Positions 21,728 through 29,815 of a stretch of 64,000 nucleotides of DNA are shown here, in pieces. Every line of letters begins with the position of its first letter. Positions within the stretch are counted from its first letter, which is position 1. The stretch is from an uncultured Chloroflexia bacterium. GTDB lineage: Bacteria; Chloroflexota; Limnocylindria; Limnocylindrales; CSP1-4. The position numbers and the translations under genes are program-made. Location of the stretch: assembly GCA_963713975.1 (NCBI GenBank), contig OY970218.1, positions 448,001 to 512,000 of the forward strand, given 5' to 3'. The notes beneath the pieces are model-generated. The model did not search any database. It was not told the origin of the DNA and saw only the letters and a program-made list of their open reading frames with translations.

Positions 21728-23878
21728 CTACCTCTCGTCGCCCGAGGCGCGCCGCGACTCCAGCTCGACCACCTTGTTCTGCGGGTACGCAACGCGCTGG
21801 TGGTACATGCCGAGCAGCTGCTTCACGAACACCTCGCGGATCGTCTCGATATCGCGCAGCGTGAGGTCGCACTCGTCGAACTGGTCGTCGGTGATCCGTT
21901 CCTCGATGATCCGCGCCACCATGGCCCGGATCGCGCTCTCGTCACGCGCTGAGAGGGACCGCACGGACGCCTCCACGGAGTCGGCCATCATGATGATCGC
22001 CGCCTCGCGGGACTGGGGCTTGGGACCGCCGTGCCGGAACTTGCGGATGTCCACCGCGTCCGCCGCCTTGCGACCCTCGGCCGTCTCGAGGCCCCCGAAC
22101 GGCGCCGCCGCCTGCTCCTTCGCCCGGGCGTAGAAGTAGGACATCACGCCCGTGCCGTGGTGCTGCGGGATGAAGGCGATCAGCGCCTTGGGAAGCCCGC
22201 TCTTGTAGGCGATGTCGATCCCGGCGCTCACGTGGCTCTTGAGCAGCTGGGCCGAAATCTCGGGGTCGAGATCGTCGTGGATGTTATCGCCGCCGGCCTG
22301 GTTCTCGATGAACGCGGCCGGGTTGGAGAGCTTGCCGATGTCGTGGTAGTACGAGGCCACGCGCGTGAGGAGCGCGTCAGCACCGACGGATTCCGCGGCC
22401 CGCTCGGCGAGATTGCCCACCATGAGCGAGTGGTGGTACGTGCCCGGCGTCTCCACCAGGAGCCTGCGCAGGAGCGGCTGGGACGGGTTCGCCAGCTCCA
22501 GCAGCTGGAACACGGTCACGATCCCGAACACAGACCCGATGACGGCGAAGCTGCCGACGGCGACAACCGATGCCCCGGCAGCCGATACCGCCGCGGCACC
22601 CAGCAGCTGCACGATCCCGGTGATGTCCTGGTCCCCCAGTAGCGCGAACGTCGCCACCACCAGCGCCTGCACGACGAACACGCCGATGCCAGCCTGGACG
22701 AACACGACCAGGCGGTCACCCCTCCGCACCCCCACGATGCCGGCGATCCCGCCCAGCATCACGTACGCGGCGAGCTCCAGGCCCGTGCCGTTGACGGCCG
22801 CGGCGAGGATCGCGATCAGGGCGGTCATCACCATCGCCACGCCGCCGTCGAGCAGGACCGTGACCAGCATGCCCACGGCGGCGAGCGGCAGCGCATACGG
22901 CAGCCAGGCTCGCTCCGCGGTCAGCTTCAGGACGAGCACCGCCAGCAGGAGCATGAGGCTCAGGAGCAGCAGGACGTTGTTGCGATGCCAGAACTCGCGA
23001 CGGAACCGCCAGGTCCACGTGAGCATCAGCCCGATCACCAGCATCGAGAGCACCACGAACCCGATCAGTCGCGCGACATCGAGGCCGCCCTCGTTCAGGC
23101 CGAAGTAGTCGATCGCCTCGACGGCCACGGGGTCCACGCGATCCCCGACCCGGACGATGGTCTCGCCGCGCTCCCACTCCTTGGTGACGTCCACCACGCC
23201 CTCGGCCGCGCGAGTGCGGGCCTGCGCGGTCAGCTCGGCGGAGAACGAGGAGTTGGGGACGATGAGTGGCTGGATCAGGGCCGCCGCCAGCGAGGCCTCC
23301 CCGGCGGTCAGGTTGCCGGCGATACGGCTCTCGATCGCATCGCGGACGGGAGCCACCTCCGTGTCCCGCAGCTCGGATCGCTCCACGGTGTCCAGGACGC
23401 GTGCCGCCTCGGAGCGGACCGCGGCCCATCGCTCGGCGTCCAGGGCAAGCAGGATCTCCCGATCGCTCTCCCCGAGCTCCCCGGCCATGGCGCCGGCGAG
23501 GATCGCGGCGCGGTCCTCCGGGGTCACGCCGTCAACGAACGCCGCGTCGGTGGCCGCGACCGTCCGGTCCAGCAGGCCGAGCTGCTGCGCCGCGACGGAC
23601 GCGCCGGCCGCGATGGTGAAGTCGTACTGCGGCTCAACGGCATCGCGGGCCACCTGGCGTTCGCGCTCGGTCAGGAACTCGCTGACGTACTGCGATGCCC
23701 GTGGCGCCTGGAGGCTGGCAGTGGCAGGCTTGCCCAGCTCGAGCTGCGTCTGCGCCGGAAGGATGTCGACGCCGAGGATCACCGACATGGCCGCGACCAG
23801 CAGGATGGTCGCGGCGATCAGCCGACCCGCGTCACGGCGGGTGAACTCGTTCGGGTGTTCGCCGGATCGAGCAAGCAT
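21728..23878 (-). CDS. pgpH: 7TM-HD (HDIG) phosphohydrolase, PgpH-like c-di-AMP phosphodiesterase
   Basis: Extracellular domain, 7TM region, ETPGTYHHS, YYHDIGK, F.ENQ, QHHGT, MMADSVEA; adjacent to ybeY as in Firmicutes. Confidence 0.88.
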   Translation of the reverse strand: MLARSGEHPNEFTRRDAGRLIAATILLVAAMSVILGVDILPAQTQLELGKPATASLQAPRASQYVSEFLTERERQVARDAVEPQYDFTIAAGASVAAQQLGLLDRTVAATDAAFVDGVTPEDRAAILAGAMAGELGESDREILLALDAERWAAVRSEAARVLDTVERSELRDTEVAPVRDAIESRIAGNLTAGEASLAAALIQPLIVPNSSFSAELTAQARTRAAEGVVDVTKEWERGETIVRVGDRVDPVAVEAIDYFGLNEGGLDVARLIGFVVLSMLVIGLMLTWTWRFRREFWHRNNVLLLLSLMLLLAVLVLKLTAERAWLPYALPLAAVGMLVTVLLDGGVAMVMTALIAILAAAVNGTGLELAAYVMLGGIAGIVGVRRGDRLVVFVQAGIGVFVVQALVVATFALLGDQDITGIVQLLGAAAVSAAGASVVAVGSFAVIGSVFGIVTVFQLLELANPSQPLLRRLLVETPGTYHHSLMVGNLAERAAESVGADALLTRVASYYHDIGKLSNPAAFIENQAGGDNIHDDLDPEISAQLLKSHVSAGIDIAYKSGLPKALIAFIPQHHGTGVMSYFYARAKEQAAAPFGGLETAEGRKAADAVDIRKFRHGGPKPQSREAAIIMMADSVEASVRSLSARDESAIRAMVARIIEERITDDQFDECDLTLRDIETIREVFVKQLLGMYHQRVAYPQNKVVELESRRASGDER

Positions 23879-23901
23879 GGCGTGGCCCTCCGTGGTGGAG
23901 G

Positions 23902-24378
23902 TCAGTGCTCCGTGTCGTGGGCGGCCAGGTCCGCGCCGGCAAGGGCCTGGGCGACCATGCCGGAGGCGACCTTGCCGTCCGCACGACCGCGGATCCGGGG
24001 CGACAGCCAGCCCATCACCTTGCCCATGTCCCGGGCAGAGCTGGCGCCGGTGGTGGCGACGCCCTCGTTGACGAGCGTGCGCAGCTCATCGTCGGTCAGG
24101 GGCTGCGGGAGATAGTCGGCGAGGATGGCGATCTCTGCCTCCTCCTTCGCGGCGAGGTCCTCGCGACCACCCTTGCGGAAGGCCTCGATGCTCTCGCGGC
24201 GGGTCTTGACCTCCCTCGTGACGACACCGAGGATCTCGTCCTCGGTGAGGGTGACCTTCTTCGCCTTCTCGATGTTGTAGATGGCGTTCTGGACCATCCG
24301 CAGCACATCGCGGCGCAGCGAATCACCCGACCGCATGGCGGCGGTCGTATCAGCCTGGAGTCGATCGCGAAGGGTCAC
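23902..24378 (-). CDS. yqeY: GatB/YqeY domain protein
   Basis: AMRSGD, REVKTRRESIEAF.KGGREDL, YLPQPL, DMGKVMG, GRADG. Confidence 0.93.
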   Translation of the reverse strand: MTLRDRLQADTTAAMRSGDSLRRDVLRMVQNAIYNIEKAKKVTLTEDEILGVVTREVKTRRESIEAFRKGGREDLAAKEEAEIAILADYLPQPLTDDELRTLVNEGVATTGASSARDMGKVMGWLSPRIRGRADGKVASGMVAQALAGADLAAHDTEH

Positions 24379-24553
24379 CGGATGGCTCCTCGGGCGTCAC
24401 GGCTGCGTCGGTGTGCCCCGACGGGATGCCGTGCCCGCGAGCTGCGCCGATGGTGGGATCCGGGACGGGTTCCCGGGTCGACGCCGCAGGTTGGCCGTGG
24501 GGACCGCGGCTCGGGTTCGCCATGACGGCGACCGGCCGCGGGACCCGGGCGGC

Positions 24554-24739
24554 TCAGCCCTGGCTCGCGCGCGCGTTCTTCTTGCGCTTCGCTTCCTTGC
24601 GCTTCCGCTTCACCGACGGCTTCTCGTAGTGCTCGCGACGGCGAGCCTCGGCGAGAATCCCGCTCTGCTGGATCTTCTTGTTGAAGCGACGGAGGGCGCT
24701 CTCGAACGTCTCGTTCTCACCCACTCGGACTTCGGCCAA
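24554..24739 (-). CDS. rpsU: 30S ribosomal protein S21
   Basis: [47 protein letters not shown]; TTG start after GAGGAGGTG RBS. Confidence 0.96.
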
Positions 24740-24861
24740 ACCCGGTTCACCTCCTCGGGCAGGAGTCTCGTACCCGCCCTCCGCACGCGATGCCCGACGG
24801 CGCGGTGGGCGTCCCGACCAGCAGACGTGCACGCACGCCAACCCGGCCGGCAGGCCGCCGG

Positions 24862-24890
24862 AGTGTACGCGCGCTCCCGGAAGGGGTCAA
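24862..24890 (-). promoter_or_regulatory. Sigma70-type promoter of rpsU
   Basis: TTGACC-N17-TACACT on the minus strand, about 120 nt upstream of rpsU. Confidence 0.75.
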
Positions 24891-25133
24891 ACGCGGCGGA
24901 CCAGCCGTGTCAGCGCTGGCTCACCGGCTACTCAACGCGGTGGCACCTGGGCGATACGTGCGGCTCGTTTGCGAGCCCGCCACCGGCCCCGAGATGACGA
25001 TCGCGTCTGCCGCGCAGCCGCGCGATCTGGCAGACTCGATGGCGTCCCGAGTCCGAGGCCGCGCGATGCTGCGGCTCCAACCACCTCACAGCGTCCCGCA
25101 CCAGACGGTGCATTCGACACTGGGAGTGTGCGC

Positions 25134-25400
25134 GTGACCTTCGAGGAGATGCAACGCCGGCAGCTGCGCCTGAGCCTCGGCCTTGCCACCGTGTTCCTGC
25201 TGAGCGTGTTTACCATCCCGATCCTCAACCACGTCGTTCCGGACGTGATGCTCACGCCGGTCCTCGGCATCCCCTTCGTCTGGCTCTACGTGGGCGTCGT
25301 GCTGCACCTGGAGTTCTGGGCCATCGCGATCAGCTACACGGTGCTCTCCAACCGCTGGGAGAAGGCCGTCGCGGCCACGGAGGTCGAGACCGGTGAGTAG
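25134..25400 (+). CDS. DUF485-like small membrane protein (ActP partner)
   Basis: Two TM helices; overlaps the start of the SSF transporter; GGGAG RBS before GTG 25134. Confidence 0.8.
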   Translation: MTFEEMQRRQLRLSLGLATVFLLSVFTIPILNHVVPDVMLTPVLGIPFVWLYVGVVLHLEFWAIAISYTVLSNRWEKAVAATEVETGE

Positions 25401-26955
25401 CCAGCTCCCGTTCCTCGCCGCGATGGCGGTGCTCATCGCAACGGTGGCCATCGGCCTGTACGCGTCCCGTGGCGCCACGACGCTGAGCGGCTACTGGGTC
25501 GCCGGTCGGGCGGTAGGCGTGTTCACCAACGCCTCGGCGATCTCCAGCAACTACCTCAGTGCCGCCTCGTTCCTTGGTGTCGCCGCCTTCATCTGGGCGT
25601 CCGGCTTCGACGGGGTCTGGTATGCGACCGGCTTCGCTGCGGGCTACGTCCTGCTGCTGCTGTTCATCGCGAGCCCGCTCCGCCGGTTCGGCCAGTACAC
25701 GATCCCGGACTTCTGCGCGGGGCGCTTCGGCTCAGTGCGTCTGCGCCGCGTCGGGATCCTGTGGACGGTGGTGATCTCCTCGCTCTACATCGTGGCCCAG
25801 ATGGTCGGGGTCGGCACCCTGATGGAGAACGTCGCCGGCATCCCGTGGGCGTGGGGCGTAGTGCTGCTGGGCGGGGTGATCATCGTGTACGTCGCCGTCG
25901 GTGGCATGACCGGGGTGACGATCACCCAGATGCTCCAGTTCTGGATCATGCTGGTGGCGATCCTCGTGCCGCTGGTCGTGCTGATGTCCCAGCACAGCTA
26001 CCCGGACCTGCTCGCCTTCGCCCTCGGGGACACGAGCGGGACCACGATCACGGGCCAGCCGGCGTTCTCGACCGCGGAGCAGGCCGCCATCCCGACCCTC
26101 GCCCAGTGGCTGCAGCCATTCAACCGCTACGACCTCCTCGGCAGCATCTCGCTCCTGGTGGCCCTCGTGTGCGGGACAGCCGGGCTGCCTCACATCCTCG
26201 CTCGCTTCTACACCAACCCCAACGCGGCGAAGGCCCGCTGGTCCACCGTCTGGGTGCTGATCTTCATCGGGATCTTCTACATGGTCACACCGGTGTGGGG
26301 CGCCTACGCTCGGCTGGTGCTCGGCCCCACGGCGGTGCTGGCGGAGGCCGGCGTGCCGGACCCCAACTCGATGATGCTGGTCACGAGTGGTGAGGCCGGC
26401 GAGTGGGCCACGGCGCTCGTGGCGGCCGGCGCGATCGCGGCGCTCCTGTCGACGGTGGCGGGCCTGCTCATCGCGCTCAGCTCGGCGTTCGCCCACGACT
26501 TCTACGGGTCGATCCTGCGGCCCGAGGCAACCGATCGCCAGAAGATCATCGCGGCCAAGGTCGCGGTCGTCGTGTTCGGAGTCCTCGCCATCATGGTGGG
26601 AATCGGGCTGCGGGGCGTGAACATCGCCTGGATGGTGGGCCTCGCGTTCGCGGTCGCGGCCAGCACCTTCTTCCCGCTGCTCACGGCCGGGATCTGGTGG
26701 CGCAAGATGACCGAGCGGGGGGCCCTGGCCGGACTCATGGTGGGCGGTACGATCGCCGCGCTGGTGGTCGTCGGCAAGCTGGCAGGCCTGTGGACGTTTG
26801 ACCAGCCTGCCCTCTTTAGCGTTCCGGCGGCCTTCATCGCGATCGTGGTGGTCTCAAAGGCGACCTACGGAGGGCAGCCAACGGAGGTCCGTGAGGCGCT
26901 CCATGCGGCGTTCACGGCGCTCCACACGCCGGAACGCAAGGTCACGACCGAGTAG
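25393..26955 (+). CDS. actP: Cation/acetate (monocarboxylate) symporter, SSF family
   Basis: NASAISSNYLSAASFLG, GGM..T..Q, GTAGLPHIL.RFYT, AFAVAAST; preceded by the DUF485-like gene. Confidence 0.88.
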   Translation: MSSQLPFLAAMAVLIATVAIGLYASRGATTLSGYWVAGRAVGVFTNASAISSNYLSAASFLGVAAFIWASGFDGVWYATGFAAGYVLLLLFIASPLRRFGQYTIPDFCAGRFGSVRLRRVGILWTVVISSLYIVAQMVGVGTLMENVAGIPWAWGVVLLGGVIIVYVAVGGMTGVTITQMLQFWIMLVAILVPLVVLMSQHSYPDLLAFALGDTSGTTITGQPAFSTAEQAAIPTLAQWLQPFNRYDLLGSISLLVALVCGTAGLPHILARFYTNPNAAKARWSTVWVLIFIGIFYMVTPVWGAYARLVLGPTAVLAEAGVPDPNSMMLVTSGEAGEWATALVAAGAIAALLSTVAGLLIALSSAFAHDFYGSILRPEATDRQKIIAAKVAVVVFGVLAIMVGIGLRGVNIAWMVGLAFAVAASTFFPLLTAGIWWRKMTERGALAGLMVGGTIAALVVVGKLAGLWTFDQPALFSVPAAFIAIVVVSKATYGGQPTEVREALHAAFTALHTPERKVTTE

Positions 26956-26976
26956 CGCCAGCGGGCCACCCGCGCG

Positions 26977-27513
26977 TCACGCTGCCAGCTGGCTCCGGAC
27001 CTTGAGCCGGGCCCTGCAGATCATGGTCCGCGTTGCCGTGTCCGAGCGACCGACCGCCGCCGCGATCTCCGCACCCGGATAGCCGCTCGCGGCCAACAGC
27101 AGGGCGGCGCGCGCGCGGTCGGGGAGGATGGCGAGTGCGGCTGCCAGCTCGGATCGGGCCTCCAGGTCGAGGACGAGATCCTCGGGCGTGTCGGGCTCGT
27201 CGCGGCGGACCAGCGCATCCGTGTGGCGCCGGCTGACCGTGGTCCGGCGCCCGAGGGAGACCGCGAGGTTCGCGACGACCCGGTGCAGCCATGCCCGGAC
27301 GTTGCGTGGCGGCCCGTTCGCGTCCGTCTCGAGCATCAGCCTCAGGAGGGCCTCCTGGACCAGGTCCTCGGCGGTCTCCGGGTCCCGGCAGGCACGGATG
27401 GCCGCGCGGACGAGCTCGTCGCGGTGCTGCTCATGCGCGGCTACCACGGTGTCGAGGGTAAGGCTGCTGGACGATGCGGCAAAGGTGGTGGTCGACATGA
27501 CCGTCGCGCTCAT
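26977..27513 (-). CDS. ECF RNA polymerase sigma factor
   Basis: Region 2 AEDLVQEALLRL..RAWLHRVVANL and region 4 LPDRAR..G...AEIA..VG......R..RAR; start ATG 27513 or 27498. Confidence 0.9.
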   Translation of the reverse strand: MSATVMSTTTFAASSSSLTLDTVVAAHEQHRDELVRAAIRACRDPETAEDLVQEALLRLMLETDANGPPRNVRAWLHRVVANLAVSLGRRTTVSRRHTDALVRRDEPDTPEDLVLDLEARSELAAALAILPDRARAALLLAASGYPGAEIAAAVGRSDTATRTMICRARLKVRSQLAA

Positions 27514-27549
27514 GCGGGGTGTTGATGGCGACACCTTGCCCCGCGTCCG

Positions 27550-27588
27550 CTGCGGAACCACCGCGGGAGGACTGCGGCAATCCTGCGG
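27550..27588 (-). promoter_or_regulatory. Four direct repeats CCGC(A/G)G at 11-bp spacing upstream of the ECF gene (putative SARP/BTAD activator site)
   Basis: Plus-strand ctgcgg 27550, ccgcgg 27561, ctgcgg 27572, ctgcgg 27583. Confidence 0.65.
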
Positions 27589-27591
27589 TGG

Positions 27592-29640
27592 TCAGAGGTT
27601 GAGGCGCGCCAGGCCGGCAGCGGCCACCTGGGACCCATCGAGGGACCGGCTCACCGCCTCCCGGTACGCGGCCGCTGCGGACATGCGGTCACCGCCCGAC
27701 TCGTAGGCCTCCCCCAGTGCGATCAGGAGATCCCGGCAGCGGTCCCGAAGAAGCGCCCGGCGCTCCTCGCTGAGGGCACTGTCGCCGTAGTAGGGACAAT
27801 CGTCGAGATACTCGCCCCGGTAGAGGCGTCGTGCCTCCTCGAGGAGCCCGATCCTGGAGACGCGATCGCCGGTGGTGGCGGCCGCGTCGAGCGCCGCCAG
27901 GAACGCGTCCACGTCGGACCAGGCGACGATCGTGTCATCGAGCCGGTAGCGATCGCTGGCGAACTGGACCGCGGAGCGACCACCCTTGCGGTGCGCCGGG
28001 TCCAGGGACGATCTCAGACCCCCCATCGTCCGGTGGAAGGCGAGGTCGGCTCGCTCGAGATCGACGTCCGGCCAGATGAGCTCGAGGACCTCGTCCTTGG
28101 CCACACCGCGTTCGCCGCGGTCAAAGAGGAACGCAAACAGGCCCTGTGCCTGCCGACTGCCCGCCTTGTCCCCGCCCCAACGCTCGATCCGTGACCCGCC
28201 GCGCTCCACCCGCAGCGGTCCGAGGGCGTGGACCCGCAGGCCCGGCAGATCGCCCCTTCGCTCGACCAGCGCCGTGTGCAGGGCCTCCGCGTGGGAGTCG
28301 ACGGCTGCACGGGCCTCCGCGAGCTGGGCGAGCTCGGCCACCTGCTCGTCCTCCCGACGGCCGGTCCGCAGGGCGCTCGCCACGTACGACGCGGACAGCT
28401 CCAGGAGGCCGATGTCGTGAGCGCCCAGCGGAACCCCGGAGGTCGTCGCGCCAACGCGCAGCTCTCCGACTCGTTCGCTGCCTTCCAGGAGCGGGATTGC
28501 CGTGATCGCGTCATCGTCTGGAAGCACCCCCTCCGACGCGAGCAGGGACCCGTCCGCAGCGGTGACCGCGAGCCCGGTCACGTCCAGAGCCCGGCTGACA
28601 TGCGCGAGCGCCGGCTTGACGCCGGCGGCGGACGGGCTGGCTGCAAGCTCCCGCTCGTCGAGGGCCCGCAGCAGCCGGTCCCGTGCGAGCGCGTCCCAGT
28701 CGCCGCCGATGATCCGACGCCTGACCCTGGAACCGATGGGCCCATAGAGCGCGGCGATGACGACCAATCCCAGGGCGGGGAAGAAGGGGCCGTAGAGGCC
28801 CAGGACGTTCGAGCTCACGACCTGGATCGCGAGGAGCACGGCAATCAGCGCGACCACGACGAGAGCACCGACGACCGAGCTTCGGAAGGCGCGGGCCGAG
28901 ACCGACGGGCCGAAGAAGATGCCTGCGGCGAAGACGGCGTACGCCGCGCACACGACCGACAGCGTGATGAAGGAGGTCCCGACCCAGGGATCCGCGTCCC
29001 CGACCACGGGGAGGAAGCGCAGGCTGGCACCGAGCCCGGCGAGGGCGACCGTGGCGAGAGCCGCCCTGAGCTGGCGCAGCCGGAGCGCGGCGGCGTCTGG
29101 GGCACGCATGGCCTGCAGCAGCCATCCCGCCGCAAGGGCGATCGCGACAAGGCGCGCGACGATCCATCCCCAGCCGAACAGCTCACCTGGGACGGGGCCC
29201 AGGGAGAAGTGCGGTGGTTCGATCCGCACCGTCGGCTCGATGCGCAGGATGGTCGGGAGCGCGAACGCGAGCAGGACCAGGTAGACCGTGACCACCAGGG
29301 AGAGCTGCCGACGCGCGGGCCGGCCCTCGGTCGCCACCACCAGTGCGAACAGGGTCAGTGTCCCGAGCGCCAGCGCCGCCGAGAGGTCCTCGATGGACCG
29401 GGCGACGACGGAGACGTCGGCGGACGTCGTCAGGCGCTGGACGACGATGCTGCAGCTCCACGTCGCAGACAGGAGTGCGAGCCCCGTGAACACACGACCG
29501 ACCAGCAGGTGCGAGCGCGTGGCAACGGTCAGGGCAAGCCAGGTCGCCAGCAGGGCGGACAGCGCCTGCGCCTCGACCTCCAGCATCGTCGGCCCGTCCA
29601 TCGATGGCCCTCGAGCACCTGCCGGTCCATGCGTGGACAC
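27592..29640 (-). CDS. Membrane-anchored transcriptional activator: multi-TM sensor + GAF-like + winged HTH + BTAD (SARP-type)
   Basis: About 8 TM helices; IPL...ERVGELRVG...D..LL..A GAF-like segment; LRVHALGPLRV..LFAFL...DEVLELIWP wHTH; DVDAF..ARRLYRGEYL BTAD; start uncertain (29640, 29601 or 29586). Confidence 0.85.
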   Translation of the reverse strand: MSTHGPAGARGPSMDGPTMLEVEAQALSALLATWLALTVATRSHLLVGRVFTGLALLSATWSCSIVVQRLTTSADVSVVARSIEDLSAALALGTLTLFALVVATEGRPARRQLSLVVTVYLVLLAFALPTILRIEPTVRIEPPHFSLGPVPGELFGWGWIVARLVAIALAAGWLLQAMRAPDAAALRLRQLRAALATVALAGLGASLRFLPVVGDADPWVGTSFITLSVVCAAYAVFAAGIFFGPSVSARAFRSSVVGALVVVALIAVLLAIQVVSSNVLGLYGPFFPALGLVVIAALYGPIGSRVRRRIIGGDWDALARDRLLRALDERELAASPSAAGVKPALAHVSRALDVTGLAVTAADGSLLASEGVLPDDDAITAIPLLEGSERVGELRVGATTSGVPLGAHDIGLLELSASYVASALRTGRREDEQVAELAQLAEARAAVDSHAEALHTALVERRGDLPGLRVHALGPLRVERGGSRIERWGGDKAGSRQAQGLFAFLFDRGERGVAKDEVLELIWPDVDLERADLAFHRTMGGLRSSLDPAHRKGGRSAVQFASDRYRLDDTIVAWSDVDAFLAALDAAATTGDRVSRIGLLEEARRLYRGEYLDDCPYYGDSALSEERRALLRDRCRDLLIALGEAYESGGDRMSAAAAYREAVSRSLDGSQVAAAGLARLNL

Positions 29641-29815
29641 TCTCGCGGAGGCGACGGAGCCGGCCGGGTGATCGATGGTGGGCCCGGCCCAGGAGACGGT
29701 CAGCGCGCCTGCGGCGGTCGTCGCGCGGGAACGGTACGCCCTTCGGGTAGCGGATACAACGGCCGACCGGACGGCACTTCCACACTTCGGTAGCGGCGAC
29801 TACCATCTCGCGATC

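Follow-up and report, generated by a model that had tools for sequence, protein, structure and literature searches.

A membrane-anchored SARP-type regulator gene, an adjoining ECF sigma factor gene and conserved phased repeats between them in uncultured Chloroflexota

A stretch of 64,000 nt (64 kb, G+C 71.8%; hereafter the window) from a contig of an uncultured Chloroflexia bacterium was analysed around two minus-strand open reading frames (ORFs), 27592-29640 and 26977-27561, that lie head to tail. The first encodes a one-component membrane regulator ending in a DNA-reading module of the Streptomyces antibiotic regulatory protein (SARP) type, and the second an extracytoplasmic function (ECF) sigma factor. 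Four direct repeats stand between them. The regulator probably activates the adjacent ECF gene through these phased repeats, without a phosphorelay and without an anti-sigma factor. The features of the locus are as follows.

27592-29601, minus strand: regulator gene, 669 aa plus stop, a one-component protein with nine transmembrane helices, a GAF-like module, a long helix, a winged helix-turn-helix (wHTH) and a BTAD domain.
27550-27588, minus strand: predicted operator, direct repeats CCGCAG/CCGCAG/CCGCGG/CCGCAG at 11-bp spacing, conserved in relatives.
27533-27538, minus strand: -10-like hexamer CAAGGT, 11 nt past the last repeat hexamer; family consensus (C/G)AnGGT.
27521-27526, minus strand: ATCAAC, six bases past CAAGGT, conserved only in ECF-class promoters.
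26977-27498, minus strand: ECF sigma factor gene, 173 aa plus stop; the database entry P0275 is the identical 173-aa form.

Both ORFs have coding-type G+C at third codon positions (0.87 and 0.89, respectively) and are real and adjacent, as the first-pass annotation had stated in placing the ECF gene directly downstream of the regulator. The longest regulator ORF reaches a GTG at 29640, and the database form of the protein (P0003) starts at M14 of that ORF, at 29601. The ECF database start is the ATG at 27498. Relatives show ACG at the position of a second in-frame ATG (27513), so 27498 was taken as the conserved start and the intergenic gap as 93 bp. The gap of about 80 bp given previously corresponds to the non-conserved ATG (78 bp) and was revised.

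An AlphaFold2 model of the regulator was built with 30 homologues (mean pLDDT 73). It placed nine helices at residues 3-298, a helix (325-339) with four strands (343-383), a 54-residue helix (394-447), a winged helix (455-554) and an all-helical domain (562-668). The parts of the protein were assigned as follows.

28708-29595, minus strand: membrane domain, residues 3-298, nine hydrophobic helices, of which the first seven are HisKA_7TM-like.
28423-28629, minus strand: degenerate GAF-like module, residues 325-393, with weak GAF matches in the PDB and a Foldseek match to DevS GAF-B.
28261-28422, minus strand: long helix and predicted dimer interface, residues 394-447, from AlphaFold2 and the homodimer prediction.
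27940-28239, minus strand: OmpR-type wHTH, residues 455-554, nearly invariant in the family, from AlphaFold2, Foldseek and alignment to the Trans_reg_C domain of the relative P0207.
27598-27918, minus strand: shortened BTAD helical domain, residues 562-668, from a sub-threshold BTAD match and the EmbR/AfsR fold match.

The model was compared with the PDB using Foldseek. The top match was EmbR (2fez, E 2e-4), and the SARP domain of AfsR was matched in transcription initiation complexes (8k60_J, E 6.5e-4; 8hvr_I, E 8.1e-4). The GAF-B domain of DevS (2vks) was matched at E 0.027, and the seven-helix membrane part resembled G-protein-coupled receptors in a generic way only. Pieces of the regulator gave sub-threshold Pfam matches to BTAD (17.3 bits, cut-off 22.1), spanning profile positions 2-88 of 146 and thus a shortened domain, and to HisKA_7TM (17.5 bits, cut-off 28.6). 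A profile of the 30 homologues searched against PDB sequences gave weak GAF matches only (3p01, E 0.034; 2zmf, E 0.42). The sole phmmer match of the regulator to PDB sequences, photosystem II PsbK, was rejected as spurious.

Domain identities were recovered through relatives that carry the families above threshold. P0003 aligned with P0150 over residues 205-669 (39% identity, E 3e-78) and with P0207 over residues 289-665 (27% identity, E 9e-29). The Pfam families of P0150 are HisKA_7TM (41.5 bits), GAF_3 and BTAD; those of P0207, P0234, P0214 and P0215 are GAF, Trans_reg_C and BTAD, with Trans_reg_C at residues 521-589 of P0207. BTAD is above threshold in P0150, P0207 and P0234, and PF03704 (BTAD) is precomputed on close relatives, as HisKA_7TM is on many cluster members of the regulator. 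The GAF-like segment could be aligned to P0150 and P0207 across their GAF_3/GAF_2 region, though with deletions. These alignments bear out the domain list of the first-pass annotation with qualifications. Its wHTH and BTAD calls were recovered by fold (EmbR, AfsR) and by transitive homology, the BTAD being shortened; its GAF-like segment was found again, by the DevS match and the alignment to GAF relatives, as a degenerate GAF. Of its about eight transmembrane helices the helices stood and the count did not, AlphaFold2 and hydropathy giving nine. The Pfam check it had proposed failed on the regulator itself, where matches were sub-threshold, and succeeded on the relatives.

The best 19-mers of the membrane helices had hydropathy values of 1.3-3.0. 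Hydropathy and the distribution of Arg and Lys in the loops fit a predicted topology with the N-terminus outside and the C-terminus inside. No kinase core (DHp/HisKA or HATPase_c) was matched by Pfam in the regulator at E<=0.1; the segment after the GAF-like module was modelled as a helix followed by the SARP module. Homodimer prediction for residues 310-669 gave a score of 0.57, and the best of three controls gave 0.00. That level was reached by 20 of 30 proteins solved as homodimers and by 1 of 23 solved as monomers, which are rough counts as a custom alignment was used. The runs agreed in at least 50% of contacts, partner pLDDT was at least 78, and the interface comprised residues 395-449 and 323-338. 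The prediction supports dimerisation of the cytoplasmic part.

A search for regulator relatives returned 184 proteins at E<=0.001. Among the 120 listed, nearly all are 660-680 aa long. Their hosts are metagenome-assembled genomes of Chloroflexota / 'Candidatus Limnocylindria', and their source names vary (SARP-family activator, HisKA protein, 7TM-domain protein). The invariant wHTH columns of the family are residues 459-553, and such a near-invariant wHTH agrees with a single shared operator sequence. The C-terminal 227 residues, searched against 1.84 billion representative proteins, found 4147 relatives at E<=0.001, 296 of them at E<=1e-10, and 27 were scanned with Pfam. A C-terminal SARP module was also seen in other sensor architectures. 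It followed a STAND NTPase and TPR repeats, the AfsR domain order reversed, in 12 of the 27 (P0133, P0139, P0149, P0152, P0153, P0158, P0159, P0177, P0226, P0227, P0233 and P0262). LysM (3 of 27) or HD (1 of 27) domains were found in P0238, P0257, P0269 and P0271.

From 3 bases past the regulator stop, the minus strand reads CCGCAG-N5-CCGCAG-N5-CCGCGG-N5-CCGCAG (27588-27550). The four units (R1, 27588-27583; R2, 27577-27572; R3, 27566-27561, which is CCGCGG; R4, 27555-27550) start exactly 11 bp apart. The four CCGC(A/G)G repeats at exact 11-bp spacing claimed at first pass are borne out by these coordinates and by shuffling. Three phased units with at most one mismatch were confined to this site in the 64 kb and appeared in 0 of 100 dinucleotide-preserving shuffles (mean 0.00). 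With three mismatches allowed, only two further matches appeared in the window, which is chance level.

Conservation was examined in 80 related loci (about 4 kb on each side of the regulator), whose source genomes all belong to uncultured Chloroflexota ('Limnocylindria'). In 32 loci an ECF homologue (tblastn, E<=1e-5) was present: 24 directly downstream, 4 upstream on the same strand and 4 upstream and divergent. None was found within about 4 kb of the regulator in the other 48. The 24 downstream-ECF loci were scored over four units. Eighteen scored at least 20 of 24, three scored 17-18 (three units) and three (L033, L038 and L039) scored 13-15, with one or two units visible by eye. The hexamers were kept in these loci and the five bases between them varied.

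A composite scan called for at least two phased hexamers plus a further hexamer, with its A and T, whose start lies 17 nt past the first base of the last repeat. Fifty hits resulted, spread over 44 of 81 sources, compared with 1-6 hits in each of 20 shuffles. When a degenerate proximal unit was allowed, 56 sites were found in 50 of the 80 loci. Forty lay at most 250 nt past the regulator stop, 8 at most 300 nt before its start and pointing away, 7 upstream on the same strand and 1 further upstream on the opposite strand. The site at position 1687 of L076 looked like a chance hit and was dropped from the position matrix. The matrix of 55 unique sites showed a unit of 8 conserved bases (CCGCAGTC) and 3 free bases, followed by a -10-like consensus (C/G)AnGGT(G). 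The scan itself imposed the A and T of this hexamer, but neither the G behind it nor the T and C after the repeat hexamers.

The automatic scan placed a site before the ECF gene in 24 of the 32 ECF loci, so that homologous regulator-ECF pairs do keep the phased repeats, as the first-pass annotation had asked. Repeats were visible by eye in six of the eight misses (L001, L010, L060, L061, L034 and L052); L033 has one good unit and L036 is cut by a contig end. Several loci (L019, L021, L027 and L050) hold two or three boxes. ATCAAC was absent from the box promoters of the hydrolase class and the RNA class described below, and may mark the start-site region or a signal in the 5' leader.

The box also precedes genes other than ECF genes. 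Alpha/beta hydrolases of about 420-485 aa lie directly behind it where the ECF gene is elsewhere or absent (L023:2145-3596, L027:6062-7519, L034:6058-7497, L036:3971-5419 and L050:6125-7387), and the hydrolase leaders share a GC-rich hairpin-like stretch. In other loci the box precedes proteins without a Pfam family. A gene of about 220 aa lies between the box and the ECF gene in one locus (L015:2177-2836), where it overlaps the ECF start; its N-terminus reads like a signal peptide. In 11 loci (L011, L020, L022, L028-L031, L041, L044, L046 and L080) no ORF comes after the box and its CATGGT hexamer. What follows is a conserved stretch of non-coding sequence, about 165 nt long and about 60-230 nt past the regulator stop (e.g. 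L029:6089-6254), and then a convergent tRNA. RNAalifold folded nine of these stretches into three hairpins; of the 51 pairs, 12 carry compensatory changes. Rfam found no family in the stretch of four loci, only tRNAs. The stretch is a candidate SARP-driven small RNA.

The ECF protein matched Pfam Sigma70_r2 (1.7e-11) and r4_2 (7.4e-11), that is, sigma regions 2 and 4 only, and has no N- or C-terminal regulatory extension. The superfamily model TIGR02937 was exceeded (62.9 bits, cut-off 42.9); no equivalog or subfamily cut-off was reached, the SigE-family model TIGR02983 giving 64.4 bits against a cut-off of 141.55. No match placed the protein in the ECF groups known to be under transcriptional control (ECF39 of the SigE type, HrpL type). 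Its relatives form a lineage-specific clade. The neighbour on the far side of the ECF gene is a convergent sodium:solute symporter (SSF) transporter gene pair member with a 21-bp gap, so no anti-sigma gene adjoins the ECF gene, which agrees with the earlier reading. No anti-sigma Pfam domain was found in 13 ORFs downstream of ECF genes in the related loci. The genes 3' of the ECF gene there are not conserved (DUF2339, UvrC, 5'-nucleotidase, ferredoxin, antitoxin). The scope of this absence is the ECF neighbourhood in the 64-kb window and the related loci, not whole genomes. In two distant loci (L027:3362-3691 and L053:6599-6928) a 109-aa ORF with three membrane helices overlaps the ECF stop by 4 nt. 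This ORF is absent from the clade of the window.

The repeats were compared with known SARP promoters. In SARP targets the direct repeats are spaced at 11 or 22 bp, and 8 bp separate the 3' repeat from the -10 element (PMC10936776). The afs box consists of two 11-bp units overlapping the -35 element. Within each unit a SARP protomer touches the 8 conserved bp at the start but none of the 3 that follow, and afsS has a weak -10, CACTGT (PMC10936776). The Chloroflexota box has the same 8+3 unit, the same phasing, the same -35-overlapping position and a -10-like hexamer of the CAnnGT type. Between the end of its conserved 8-mer and the -10-like hexamer lie 9 bp, compared with 8 bp in the literature (PMC10936776). 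Because unit, phasing and position match those of SARP promoters, the adjacent SARP-type protein was taken to use the repeats as its operator, and the hexamer was taken for a -10. The link between regulator and operator is well supported.

The following mechanism is favoured. The nine-helix membrane domain and the degenerate GAF-like module would form the input and sense a signal in or at the membrane. The long helix would dimerise the regulator and relay the signal to the two SARP modules of each dimer. Two dimers would fill the four repeat units, with SARP modules on the CCGCAG(TC) repeats at 27550-27588, one per helical turn. The repeats would stand in for a -35 element, and the bound SARPs would recruit RNA polymerase to CAAGGT (27533-27538), thereby activating rather than repressing the gene. 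To judge from spacing, ECF transcription would begin near 27526. The ECF sigma factor would be active as made, controlled by its amount rather than by an anti-sigma factor, and would then steer polymerase to its own regulon. A switch of this kind, from SARP to ECF, had been proposed at first pass, and the computational checks favour it. The further targets of the box had gone unnoticed there.

Several results weigh against this mechanism or limit it. The ECF gene is one of several box targets and the regulator is not dedicated to it, since the box also precedes non-ECF genes in other loci. The scan found no box in 30 of the 80 related loci, and no perfect hexamer of any sequence, repeated three times at 11 bp, was found near the regulator in 33 loci without a CCGCAG box. 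The regulator as a whole matched no Pfam or NCBIfam family at E<=0.1, and the profile of 30 homologues matched no SARP among PDB sequences. A generic sigma-70 promoter scan of 26800-29800 returned no promoter. The -10-like hexamer is atypical for a housekeeping sigma factor, in that position 1 is C or G and positions 4-5 are GG. No terminator-like site was found by the scan between regulator and ECF genes; as none separates them, read-through into the ECF gene is possible and may add a basal level. The 109-aa ORF of L027 and L053 could be an unrecognised anti-sigma factor or a member of the regulon, and an unlinked or unrecognised anti-sigma factor for this ECF is possible. A terminator-like hairpin with a T-rich tail (28153-28133, minus strand) lies inside the regulator coding sequence and was taken as chance, because shuffles averaged 0.3 per region.

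An alternative is that the ECF holoenzyme itself reads the box promoter, with the SARP supplying the missing -35 contact. The circuit would then have positive feedback, and the other boxed genes would form a joint SARP and ECF regulon. The -10-like hexamer speaks for this, as its invariant A and T with GGT(G) is unlike TATAAT and common to all target classes. The SARP module of AfsR touches sigma region 4 ('sigma adaptation'), a contact that would in principle be possible with region 4 of an ECF (PMC10936776). Against this, many of the 48 loci (of 80) that lack an ECF homologue within about 4 kb keep the same -10-like hexamer. The HrdB-read afsS -10, CACTGT, is also of the CAnnGT type (PMC10936776). 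The clade has no known ECF promoter motif. ECF-read box promoters were judged unlikely.

The ECF gene might instead be expressed by read-through alone, as the second gene of an operon transcribed from the regulator promoter, with the repeats having another role or being bound as a site of repression or roadblock. Both genes share a strand and lie 93 bp apart, and the gap holds neither a terminator-like site nor a sigma-70 consensus promoter. Gene order in the relatives points the other way. Where the ECF gene is not downstream of the regulator, the box precedes it in seven of eight loci (L012, L018, L019, L021, L027, L034 and L052), upstream or divergent, with the -10-like hexamer at its fixed distance; the eighth is cut by a contig end. 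A box before the ECF gene whatever the gene order or orientation argues against pure read-through, and against the ECF gene being only co-transcribed, the case named at first pass as one that would overturn its proposal. The box also stands before unrelated genes that are read in the direction away from the regulator (L032, L035, L049, L062, L068, L077 and L079). Expression by read-through alone is distinctly improbable.

Direct repeats with 11-bp periodicity in place of a -35 element are likewise typical of the targets of PhoB-type response regulators. The repeats might accordingly be bound by a different winged-helix protein of the OmpR/PhoB type encoded elsewhere, e.g. a response regulator, with the proximity of the regulator incidental. 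However, the box is physically linked to the regulator in 50 of 80 loci, in several gene orders and orientations. It is single in the 64-kb window, and the near-invariant wHTH of the family matches the invariant hexamer. Binding by another protein of this kind was considered very improbable. Sequestration of the ECF by the membrane protein, in the manner of an unconventional anti-sigma factor and instead of or besides gene activation, is suggested by gene adjacency and by the contact of SARP modules with sigma region 4 in AfsR complexes (PMC10936776), but was given hardly any credence, as no anti-sigma domain was detected in the regulator (Pfam, NCBIfam), 48 of 80 family members have no neighbouring ECF and the conserved operator points to a DNA-binding output.

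A broader proposal joins the favoured mechanism to the ECF-read promoter. Membrane SARP sensors found lineage-wide in Limnocylindria-type Chloroflexota would use one code, CCGCAGTC per 11 bp, and drive the ECF gene, the structured small RNA and secreted hydrolases. The SARP would give the ECF holoenzyme its -35 contact, making a self-reinforcing circuit without phosphorelay or anti-sigma factor. It is offered tentatively and is rather unlikely to hold as a whole.

The regulator was compared with known regulatory proteins. It has the same winged helix and BTAD fold as the SARPs (AfsR, ActII-ORF4, RedD and DnrI; mycobacterial EmbR). Its SARP module is C-terminal (residues 455-668 of 669), after the membrane and GAF-like parts, whereas in the small, medium and large SARP classes it is N-terminal (PMC10972967). 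The BTAD is shortened, the host belongs to the Chloroflexota and not the Actinobacteria, the target is a sigma factor gene and not a biosynthetic cluster, and three to four repeats are present instead of two. ToxR, TcpP and CadC are likewise one-component membrane-anchored winged-helix proteins that act from the membrane. In ToxR and CadC an N-terminal wHTH is followed by a single transmembrane helix and a C-terminal periplasmic sensor; the order is reversed in the regulator, which has nine transmembrane helices. Transmembrane transcription regulators are known as a widespread class (PMC10269533). With HisKA_7TM sensor kinases the regulator shares a seven-helix membrane module followed by GAF and a helix, but it has two extra transmembrane helices, no detected DHp/ATPase part and a DNA-binding output.

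ECF sigma factors controlled transcriptionally and without an anti-sigma factor include SigE-CseBC, SigQ-AfsQ1/Q2, HrpL-HrpRS and sigma-AntA-FscRI (PMC8999054). The logic of the cascade is shared: an upstream signalling device turns on an ECF gene whose product is active as made (PMC8999054). The known inputs are two-component systems, sigma-54 enhancer-binding proteins and LuxR/TetR regulators (PMC8999054), whereas here the input would be a single membrane protein. No description of a membrane-bound SARP, or of a SARP controlling an ECF, was found in the literature search. The word 'membrane' did not occur in a SARP review (PMC10972967) and 'SARP' did not occur in an ECF review (PMC8999054). 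BTAD did not occur in the main text of a census of transmembrane regulators (PMC10269533), nor did BTAD, SARP or Chloroflexi in that of an ECF reclassification (PMC7826278). Transmembrane one-component regulators, transcriptionally controlled ECFs and the geometry of SARP promoters are already known; their combination here appears to be new.

SARPs are known as soluble activators of actinomycete antibiotic clusters with N-terminal SARP domains. In an uncultured phylum of soil and freshwater, their DNA-reading, polymerase-recruiting module serves as the C-terminal output of a membrane input that resembles a sensor kinase, and this use widens their range. For transcriptionally controlled ECFs it would add a fourth kind of input, besides two-component systems, sigma-54 activators and LuxR/TetR, and it would be a clean example of a single protein in place of a kinase and a response regulator. 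Operator, phasing and likely -10 are already defined by the comparative data, so that a purified 220-aa fragment and 70 bp of DNA would suffice for a direct test. It might serve as a compact membrane-to-promoter sensor scaffold.

The flanking genes in the window are unrelated to signalling: a pair encoding DUF485 and sodium:solute symporter (SSF) proteins on one side, convergent with the ECF gene, and an AMP-binding enzyme gene on the other, divergent from the regulator. Synteny in the closest clade (L001, L003, L006, L008, L060 and L061; window 21728-26955) runs HIT, unknown, OmdA/DUF1905, AMP-binding (divergent), regulator, ECF, YqeY and a 7TM-receptor HD hydrolase. Compared with these loci, the DUF485 and symporter insertion 3' of the ECF gene is present only in the window. 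Upstream of the regulator (window, about 29700-29760) there is a conserved motif, GGCGTACCGTCT..GCGCGACGACCGCCGCC..GTGACCGTCC, about 45 nt long, which was also seen in the closest clade, at the same place in L001-L004, L006-L008 and L061. It may be intergenic promoter or operator DNA, because homology of the AMP-binding protein starts only at residues 25-43 of its long ORF.

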